A stretch of 64,000 nucleotides of DNA from a virus (taxonomy: Duplodnaviria > Heunggongvirae > Uroviricota > Caudoviricetes), in IMG/VR virus record IMGVR_UViG_2684623127_000007, one strand, 5' to 3'. Made by a program: the position numbers. Below, in pieces: positions 51,901 to 54,900 of the stretch (its first letter is position 1; each line of letters begins with the position of its first letter).

Positions 51901-54900
51901 AAAAACAAAAACCCGCCGAAGCGGGTTAAGTGCGGGTGCGTTGAGGATGCCTGACACATCAGAGGTGGCGAGGGATTTCTCCCCCGCCTGGTCTCTTACT
52001 CCTCAGGTTCGTAAGCTGTGAAGACAGCGACCTCCGTCTGGCCGGTTCGGATTCGTACCTCGCAGAGGTCTTTCCTCGTTACCAGTGCCGTCACTATGAC
52101 GATTAAACAGATGACGATCAGGGCGATTAACATCGCCTTTTGCTGCTTCATAGCCTGCTTCTCCTTGACCTTTCGGTCCGTAAGAGGCAATCTATATGTG
52201 ACGAGCATATAGGGGCCTCACTTCGATTTATAGTCGGGTGGGGCTTTTATCTATCTGCCGTTGGTGTTCATGCCCGAGGCAGATAGCCTCAAGCACCCGC
52301 AGCAATCCTACTTAACTCTGCCGTTACAGCAAACCGTTTTCGCCCGATATGGGAATTCCCATATCGGAATGAATTCAGTTCACCTGGCGAGGCTTAGCGT
52401 ACAATTTTTTCCGTTTTGTGAGCTGCCCCTACATGCCGCTGGCGCGGCATCCGGAAAAAGAATCCACGTCCTGAAGGACGAGGATGTCAAGTGCCTTTCC
52501 TGGTCCAGCCATATTTTTTGAATGCAGGCGCCGCTTCATCGGTTTGTAGCCATTCTGCAAATCGACGGGTTTCATCATTTGCATCCTGACGTACTGTAAT
52601 GTTCATATCACGCCATATCACGTAGTCTGGCGCTATTTCCACGACATCACCAATTTCTGGATTACTGGCTGCCCAGTCAGCCCAGGTTATCCAGACATCT
52701 GCTCCAGGCTGATTCTCAAGAGCCTTACGTGCAGTTCCGCTATTGGGCGCATATAAAATAATATTTTTTCGGATTGCGGCGACAGTTTCTATATTCCCTT
52801 TACGTCCGGCAATATCTTCCCAGACGCCAGTGCCTGATGTATTACTGGTACCACCACCATCATTAACAATTACGCCAATCCCAGGTCTGGTCAGGTCGTC
52901 AATACTCCGGATATTTTTAGGATTACCTTTCTTTACCAGTAAAATACTTTTTCGCAGATAAAGAGGCTGAATATCTTTTTCACTGAAGCTGTCTTTATGG
53001 TCCCGAATGATAGCCAGAGCAGATTGTTCTGATGCGCCAAACAAGATATCTGCATTTTTTTTGGCATCTTCATTCCATTTGTTCTGTGGGCCGTAATGAA
53101 CGTTCACTATAATACCTGTTTTTTCGGCATAAAGTTTGGCTGCATCAAGCAAGGCTGTATGCGGGCCACCAGGACCATACAGATTGATATCAGCATAAGC
53201 AGCAGAAGACAGGAATATTAAAAAACCTGCCATTATGTTCCTCATAAAAAACTCCTTTTATTGGTTATCATGAAATAAAGTTATAAACACTACAAATAAT
53301 ATATATTACATCCAGATAAACTTATCCGACTTTACCTCGTGCATAGCTTGTTATTTAAAGTCAACAAAATAAGGAAAATTATACGCATATTGAAGAGTAT
53401 AAACCTTACATGTTGATTACATTTTTGTAATCAACATCCTGTTTGGAATAGCCAGCCTTTAATGGATAACTATTTCTGACAATGCAATGAGTATAATCAA
53501 GTCCATCTTCCACTGAGAATTAGAGGCGGCATGCTTTTTCCGGCTCTTGCCGGATATCCGTAATTGTCCATAATCTGCAGATTTATACCTTCTGCATGAC
53601 CTGTCAGCGAAAATTTGTCCGGTGTTTCTACGGGAATGACATCAAAAGTTACACGCACTCGCGTTACCGTGTAGACCTACTTTCCTGCACTTGCAAGATC
53701 ACAGTGGTGTAACCGTAACAGGAATTTATTCTCTGGACCGGCAGTAAATCCCTGAGTGGCGTGGTTCCCATATCAATTTCCCGCCAGGCAGCCTCCATTG
53801 CCAGCGTACAGGCTGGAGCCATGACCTGCCCTTTAAATCTGGCCCGACCATCCCACCGGACGTGTTCTTCTCCCCTGAACTTAGGTACAGTCATCTCCAG
53901 TGGCACAAAAGTGTCAGCGCCATAATTTTTGACCGTTATCGCGCTACGGATATTTTGTTGACTGGTGAAAATCACCCCGCAGAATCAGGCTTATTCCCTT
54001 AACCTGGGCTTTCATCCTGACCGCCGCCTCACTACGACCAATCAGACTGCCGATGCATTTTACCTTCATTGTTAGTATCATGATTTCAGGCCTGCACCAT
54101 CCGCTCATTGCCCGGACTTCCGACAAATCCCGGCAACCATATCCCGGTGCTTGTTCAGCTCCCGCAGCGCGGCGCAGACTCGCTCCCACTTCTGGACATG
54201 ATTCTTCGCCCTACGCAGTTCGCGATTTGCCATATGCAGCGATGGCAAAATCAAATCATCTTCTCGCGTTGCAGTAAACGATGGCAGCGACTGCACAATG
54301 TCCGCCACAGTTTCTGTTTTAATATCTTCCTGTGTTGCATCTTTCTGTACCGGTAACGCAACACCGGCTGGCTGAGGAAAGGCTTTACCATCGGTTTCCG
54401 CTACCGATTCAACTTTCGGCTCTGCTGGTAAATTATCACCTGGTATGCAGTAACGAATTTTACCGTTCTGGTTTACGCGAATCAGACGACCTTTGCTGAT
54501 TGCCATTGCCAGCGTTGAAGCAACTTTGCGGGATGTTGTACCGAACAGCGTAGCCAGTTCATCCGCCGTTTGTGGTCCGCGTTGTTCAATCGTCGCGGTT
54601 AAATCGCACTCTGAGATTTTCGCTTCTGTTGCCGTGGTGGTTTCTTCTGGCGCTGGCTGTTCCTGCTGAACGTTGTTATCAGCCACACGCCAGGTGTATA
54701 CGCTTTTATCAACGAAGCCAGCCTTTTTCAGTTCCCACAGCTCGTTCAGTACTTCTTCACGACTGATATCAAGTCGCGCAGCCAGCTATACCGACGTGGC
54801 TTTTCCCATCGCTTTCAGTGCGTCAAAAACAGTCTCCATAAATTTCCTCCCGGTAAAAAATCACTTCTCAACTCAAACAAAACCAGCCGCTTTCCGGCGT

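Follow-up and report, generated by a model that had tools for sequence, protein, structure and literature searches.

The DNA analysed here, a stretch of 64,000 nucleotides (nt) from IMG/VR virus record IMGVR_UViG_2684623127_000007 (the window), carries on its minus strand a gene of the DUF1627/YdaW family whose codon 18 is an amber TAG. By sequence match the window is Escherichia coli O157:H7, with 100% identity to strain NE122 over 24 kb, and the gene lies in Sp9, a lambdoid prophage integrated at ompW. The TAG is very probably a lineage-fixed nonsense mutation that ends the normal product of the gene and represents ordinary prophage decay. The features of the reading frame, including the open reading frame (ORF) starts used in public annotation by the Prokaryotic Genome Annotation Pipeline (PGAP) and others, are as follows.

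54105..54839, minus strand: whole DUF1627/YdaW-family gene, 244 codons plus stop, amber-disrupted (from translation, Pfam, PHROG and orthologue coding sequences)
54846..54850, minus strand: Shine-Dalgarno (SD) sequence GGAGG with a 6-nt spacer (AAATTT) to the ATG (from the sequence and the anti-SD duplex energy)
54837..54839, minus strand: native ATG start, also the annotated start in the O145 and O55:H7 orthologues
54789..54839, minus strand: 17 sense codons still translatable (METVFDALKAMGKATSV), spanning helix 1 and reaching two residues into helix 2 of winged-helix domain 1 (from translation)
54786..54788, minus strand: amber TAG, codon 18 (from alignments and allele counts)
54783..54785, minus strand: CTG, codon 19, the PGAP start (from annotation; SD energy -3.0 kcal/mol)
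54684..54686, minus strand: GTG, codon 52, start of the mechanical ORF and of Sakai ECs_5720 (from the ORF list and annotation; SD energy -0.9 kcal/mol)

Read on the minus strand, the sequence contains each of the elements described in the original prediction: a strong GGAGG ribosome-binding site and ATG opening a frame, TAG as its codon 18, more than 200 unbroken codons after the TAG (226 sense codons without interruption, up to the TGA at 54107-54105), and an ORF track that restarts at an internal GTG, which begins at 54686 and is codon 52. The codon coordinates given in that prediction were one base too low; the ATG is at 54837-54839 rather than 54836-54838 and the TAG at 54786-54788 rather than 54785-54787, and a frame read from 54838 is wrong. 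Pairing with the anti-SD sequence is calculated at -10.3 kcal/mol for ATG1, compared with -3.0 for CTG19 and -0.9 for GTG52. Intact orthologues show no difference from the window in the SD, the ATG or the 17 codons before the TAG, and the frame is, judged by its sequence, a genuine gene and not a chance ORF.

Ancestral codon and distribution of the amber allele

In the O145:H28 prophage PPompW_14040, a 244-amino-acid (aa) coding sequence (CDS; BCI48946.1) is annotated from exactly the same ATG and differs from the window gene by a single base, with GAG in place of TAG. The O55:H7 strains TB182A and DEC5B contain the same prophage module, in which the 244-aa CDS (WP_000450692.1) is intact and reads GAG at this codon, and when the window was compared with both O55:H7 copies over 3,061 nt, position 54788 was the sole difference. 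The O55:H7 and O145 orthologues share the ATG and SD with the window and are identical to it at 734 of 735 coding bases, their GAG yielding 244 aa where the window has TAG. In alignments of 171-771 nt to intact orthologues, one base differed, always GAG versus TAG. TAT, CAG or TGG had been suggested for the orthologous codon; the comparison returned GAG, which encodes glutamate.

Among the 120 closest homologous clusters, Glu18 was found in 117 of 117, and 113 of the 120 begin at the native ATG. Full-length relatives with ∼20-60% identity, aligned from the same Met, have Glu18 in 49 of 57 cases, and no stop at position 18 was present among the 117 close and 57 distant homologues. Conservation within the family is greatest at the N-terminus, Met1-Val17 being retained down to ∼20% identity. 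Since Glu18 and Met1 are conserved in close and distant homologues alike, the upstream 17 codons are genuinely coding and the stop is derived. The original prediction had made its case depend on an orthologue alignment keeping these 17 codons within the gene, and the alignment did so, with the same ATG and the same codons in the orthologues; the alternative that they lie outside the gene is rejected by the intact orthologue annotations and by the conservation of Met1-Val17. Taken together, these comparisons indicate that GAG (Glu18) is ancestral and that TAG is derived, by a G-to-T change at 54788 on the gene strand.

The distribution of the two alleles was surveyed with 61-nt probes, in TAG and GAG versions, scored as exact matches among complete-genome records. 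The TAG probe matched 292 records and the GAG probe 311. All 79 TAG carriers among the matches listed were O157-labelled or unlabelled. Among the named TAG carriers are Sakai, EDL933, TW14359, EC4115 and Xuzhou21. PV15-279, of the early-branching, beta-glucuronidase-positive A5 lineage (PMC6256406), also carries TAG, and the A4 complex, which is sorbitol-fermenting, is represented by its type strain 493/89 (PMC3375798). TAG was present in each of the three O157 clonal complexes sampled (A4, A5 and A6). The 80 GAG carriers listed included O55:H7, O26, O103, O111, O121, O145 and O45 strains, with no O157:H7-labelled strain among them, and GAG was present in each of four O55:H7 genomes, including CB9615, RM12579, TB182A and DEC5B. 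The simplest reading of this pattern is a single G-to-T transversion that arose after the O55:H7 ancestor and before the common ancestor of the O157 complexes, and that would have been inherited vertically since.

Sequencing errors typically show up as one base that departs from close relatives, and a sequencing error had been offered, alongside a nonsense mutation and a site needing suppression, as one of three explanations for the TAG. That the record is in error here, through sequencing or assembly, has negligible probability, because the identical TAG occurs in 292 complete genomes, including Sakai, EDL933, TW14359 and EC4115, obtained in many laboratories and on many platforms, with a distribution that matches the phylogeny. 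The nonsense mutation is the option that survives; the GAG codon of the orthologues, the allele counts and the tRNAs in the window (see below) speak against the other two.

A further copy was observed on a 3.9-kb draft contig (ACAAVC010000223.1, from GCA_051684065.1), with the identical TAG and 5′ half at 1107-1897. The gene on this contig (P0099, 231 aa) starts at codon 19 and has a different 3′ end, and a DUF977 neighbour replaces the 54-aa ORF that follows the gene in the window. An independent second stop in P0099 was considered and rejected, because its TAG allele and 5′ sequence do not differ from those of the window. The copy arose either by recombination between prophages carrying DUF1627 paralogues, giving a mosaic, or by chimeric assembly of the draft contig.

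Translation of the amber allele

Ribosomes would be expected to start at the GGAGG-ATG and to release a 17-residue peptide, the stop falling in the second helix of winged-helix domain 1. The full-length tandem-winged-helix protein, 244 residues in intact alleles, would then not be made, save for traces arising from near-cognate readthrough, and farther downstream the DUF1627 frame would offer no efficient restart site: no in-frame restart with meaningful anti-SD pairing was found in the 92 codons after the TAG. No suppressor tRNA was found in the window, whose tRNAs are Arg(TCT) and one with a CAT anticodon, and a prophage-encoded suppressor was rejected on this basis. An Rfam scan of 53900-55000 at gathering thresholds returned no element. 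The mutation turns GTAGAG into GTATAG, giving a TATAGC hexamer that is a possible -10 element; a promoter scan on the gene's strand called no promoter-like site at this hexamer, and a new promoter was likewise rejected. From the weak restart pairing and the lack of a suppressor tRNA in the window or of an RNA or promoter element, we infer that the allele would be null or near-null, with the protein absent.

The TAG may also affect the gene that follows.

53944..54108, minus strand: 54-aa ORF (WP_001505071.1 / ECs_5721), downstream, its ATG overlapping the TGA of the DUF1627 gene (ATGA) (from annotation)

This ORF is probably translationally coupled to the DUF1627 gene by the ATGA overlap, and the coupling would be lost in the TAG allele.

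Public gene models for the locus disagree. The PGAP model (WP_077744273.1) is 226 aa long and begins at CTG19, directly after the stop; the Sakai model, ECs_5720, is 193 aa long and begins at GTG52; and intact alleles are annotated as 244 aa. No disruption or pseudogene flag is present in the O157 records examined. Models of this kind correspond to a truncated protein made by re-initiation at CTG19 or GTG52, which would keep winged helix 2 and the C-terminal helix and be functional, perhaps by partnering DUF1627 paralogues encoded by co-resident prophages or by acting on them as a dominant-negative. Terminating ribosomes sometimes re-initiate nearby, two annotation pipelines call such products, the 226 codons past the TAG are fully intact, and the DUF1627 region (residues 84-236) is wholly downstream of the TAG. 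Several similar loci are also present per O157 genome (4-7 places per record with an 851-nt query, 1-3 with the probe). We nevertheless regard a functional truncated protein as unlikely. SD pairing at CTG19 and GTG52 is far below the -10.3 kcal/mol of the real start, initiation at CTG is very inefficient, and GTG52 sits 33 codons past the stop. A product from GTG52 would be without the whole of winged-helix domain 1, and the family shows its strongest conservation in this lost N-terminal domain. The intact 226 codons carry no information on selection, since the flanking DNA has changed just as little. The CTG19 and GTG52 models are start-picking artefacts.

A second alternative is that the TAG is decoded, by a suppressor tRNA encoded elsewhere or by context-dependent readthrough, so that the full-length protein is made and the site acts as an expression attenuator. 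The start signals are untouched, and the stop is followed by C; UAG-C is a comparatively weak terminator context in E. coli. Decoding is nonetheless highly improbable, since the ancestral and family-wide state is Glu and the site is thus no conserved recoding site; in addition, the window holds no suppressor tRNA and no RNA family or structure signal was detected at the site. As regards programmed readthrough, the stop is confined to one clonal lineage and is accompanied by neither a dedicated tRNA in the window nor an Rfam element. Amber suppressors are not known from natural E. coli isolates.

Several points weigh against a fixed null allele. About 140 of the ∼600 allele-bearing records were seen by name, and revertants or transfer between serotypes are possible; the suppressor-tRNA scan (by ARAGORN) covered the 64-kb window alone; some product may arise by low-level readthrough or non-canonical re-initiation; and the rest of the gene is without further lesions, an observation of no weight at a background of only ∼1 change per 3 kb.

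Gene family and predicted structure

Profile searches were performed with a 244-residue query in which the amber was replaced by a sense residue. Pfam PF07789 (DUF1627) matched residues 84-236 with 308.8 bits (gathering threshold 28.1; E = 7.8e-93), and PHROG 630 matched end to end, over residues 1-242, at 2.5e-121. Homology searches found 2,724 clusters, of which those with a name are DUF1627 domain-containing proteins; at 50% identity the DUF1627/YdaW family is small, with 176 clusters. The window encodes the full family architecture, a winged helix from Met1 followed by the DUF1627 region, but with the amber at codon 18 interrupting it, and these matches identify the locus as a disrupted member of the family.

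An AlphaFold model was generated from 54 diverse homologues, with a mean predicted local distance difference test score (pLDDT) of 81.5. The predicted elements are the following.

54684..54839, minus strand: winged-helix domain 1, residues 1-52 (from AlphaFold, pLDDT 94-98, weak HTH_20 and ArsR matches, and Foldseek)
54447..54611, minus strand: winged-helix domain 2, residues 77-131 (from AlphaFold, profile matches and a FeoC-like match)
54111..54239, minus strand: C-terminal long helix, residues 201-243 (from AlphaFold, pLDDT 86-96)

Domain 1 is modelled as helices 4-11, 16-23 and 27-40 and wing strands 43-46 and 49-52, with codon 18 falling within the second helix. The winged-helix-like N-terminus proposed in the original prediction agrees with this model (pLDDT 94-98 over residues 1-50), with ArsR/MarR/AspA-type fold matches and with sub-threshold profile matches over residues 4-46 (24.6 bits for HTH_20, cut-off 27; 23.5 bits for NCBIfam ArsR/SmtB, cut-off 55). 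Domain 2 forms the N-terminal part of the DUF1627 region. The linkers are disordered in the model, one between the winged helices and a long one before the C-terminal helix, which may be a coiled-coil or oligomerisation element. Foldseek recovered the tandem winged-helix proteins ScpB, ESCRT-II and the SelB C-terminus, along with single ArsR/MarR/AspA/FeoC domains at 1.2-2.2 Å. According to the model, the fold of a three-helix bundle plus beta-hairpin wing is present twice in the predicted protein.

When a specific function was sought through fold and sequence comparison, the matches were to generic winged-helix or tandem winged-helix proteins alone. Profile matches of domain 2 to PDB entries include the Z-alpha-type domain of ADAR1, ZBP1 (Z-DNA/Z-RNA-binding) and centromere-binding AspA, with a best E value of 1.2e-7, and these may provide a lead on what the DUF1627 family binds. 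YdaW is listed as a predicted transcription factor (PMC9308461), and ydaW is often found near PasA/PasC small RNA (sRNA) genes (bioRxiv 10.64898/2026.05.13.724894). The ydaW gene of the Rac prophage was recovered in an overexpression screen as a blocker of RcaT, the toxin of retron-Sen2 (bioRxiv 10.1101/2020.06.22.160242); this screen is the sole functional hint found for the family.

Such hints bear on whether the amber was favoured. That loss of the gene was selected on the O55:H7-to-O157 branch, or that a low-level truncated product made up of winged helix 2 and the C-terminal helix interferes with the DUF1627 paralogues of other O157 lambdoid prophages, is very improbable. For a selected loss, YdaW may modulate Sp9 replication, the paa/adfO adhesin region, or a host defence or toxin system, the last being suggested by the block of RcaT by Rac ydaW. 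Neutral decay rather than selection would account for the lesion.

Prophage setting and comparison with known lesions

The window opens with trpBA-yciGFE and a truncated ompW, continues with an effector island (espM1, nleG, nleF, nleH1-2 and nleA), and then enters the lambdoid prophage, the locus being labelled 'prophage Sp9; lambda-like phage' in the Sakai reference record. The order on the minus strand is a Cro/CI-type regulator, a YdaT-like protein, a replication O-like gene, replication P and the DUF1627 gene, followed by the 54-aa ORF, a broken fimbrial gene, paa/adfO and hokD/sok.

54873..55334, minus strand: lambda-type replication protein P gene, upstream of the DUF1627 gene (from annotation)

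With the P gene directly upstream, the DUF1627 gene can be placed at the end of the early replication module. The same module (O, P, DUF1627, 54-aa ORF, broken fimbrial gene and paa) surrounds the intact gene in O55:H7 (WP_000450692.1) and in O145:H28 PPompW (BCI48946.1).

Sp9 shows further decay in the form of IS1203, a frameshifted DNA methyltransferase gene and the broken fimbrial gene. The fimbrial-protein gene (53406-53939, minus strand), which separates the 54-aa ORF from the paa/adfO adhesin gene, has a frameshift and an internal stop, and because the O55:H7 copy is equally broken this lesion predates the amber mutation. The DNA methyltransferase gene (46251-47308, minus strand) is annotated as frameshifted in NE122, whose sequence matches the window exactly, and as intact in PV15-279 (WP_000935548.1). 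The position of IS1203 varies among O157 strains: in the window (50463-51676) and in NE122 it is located between hokD and a rem-like small ORF, with an intact O gene, whereas the PV15-279 copy splits the replication O-like gene. Between paa and IS1203 lies the hokD toxin gene (51996-52298, minus strand), with a full-length match to the sok antitoxin RNA at 52149-52298 (104 bits). Rfam also identified the sRNA STnc100 at 45660-45868 on the minus strand (175 bits), adjoining AgvB at 45599-45658 on the plus strand (56.6 bits against a gathering score of 56); both sit in the late-region leader beside the prophage tRNAs. One of these tRNAs (46135-46210, minus strand) is called Met (CAT) by ARAGORN and tRNA-Ile by PGAP, and its counterpart in the O145 phage is tRNA-Met; it may be a lysidine-modified Ile2-type tRNA.

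The nearest parallel to the Sp9 lesion in K-12 is Rac ydaW, a listed pseudogene. It belongs to the same family, occupies the same place directly after the replication genes (ydaV there), and is likewise decayed within a cryptic prophage; its neighbour is a DnaC-type gene, whereas the Sp9 copy neighbours a lambda-type P. Similarity between the two ends at query base 499, beside a lysis gene, so that Rac ydaW has a C-terminal deletion and keeps the N-terminal winged helix, in contrast to the point nonsense mutation in the window, which removes the N-terminal domain from any product. The lambda ambers Sam7, Oam29 and Pam80 were laboratory-selected and are propagated on suppressor hosts. The Sp9 amber resembles these classical lambdoid ambers in being a single-base UAG that a supE or supF host would conditionally rescue, but it is natural, fixed in a pathogen lineage and located in a non-essential gene of a defective prophage.

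Among the markers of the stepwise model for O157:H7 are the uidA +686 insertion and a 12-bp deletion in flhC (PMC3375798). Those lesions are likewise small, inactivating and shared by descent, and they separate steps from O55:H7 to O157; they mark later steps (A6 and A4) and have known phenotypes, whereas the Sp9 amber predates the A4/A5/A6 split and has no known phenotype. Neither the paper on O157 defective prophages (PMC2669165) nor the main text of the comparison between O55:H7 and O157:H7 (PMC2806823) describes the amber lesion. It is apparently undescribed, yet of a thoroughly known kind, a natural amber in a defective-prophage gene.

The lesion carries little biological weight, as one more point lesion in the O157 defective-prophage pool. 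It is a clean single-base marker that distinguishes the sampled O157 complexes (A4, A5 and A6) from O55:H7, and it exposes an annotation inconsistency in which one locus is given 226, 193 or 244 aa. The O157 and O55:H7 copies of Sp9 also constitute a natural knockout/wild-type pair for tests of DUF1627/YdaW function.

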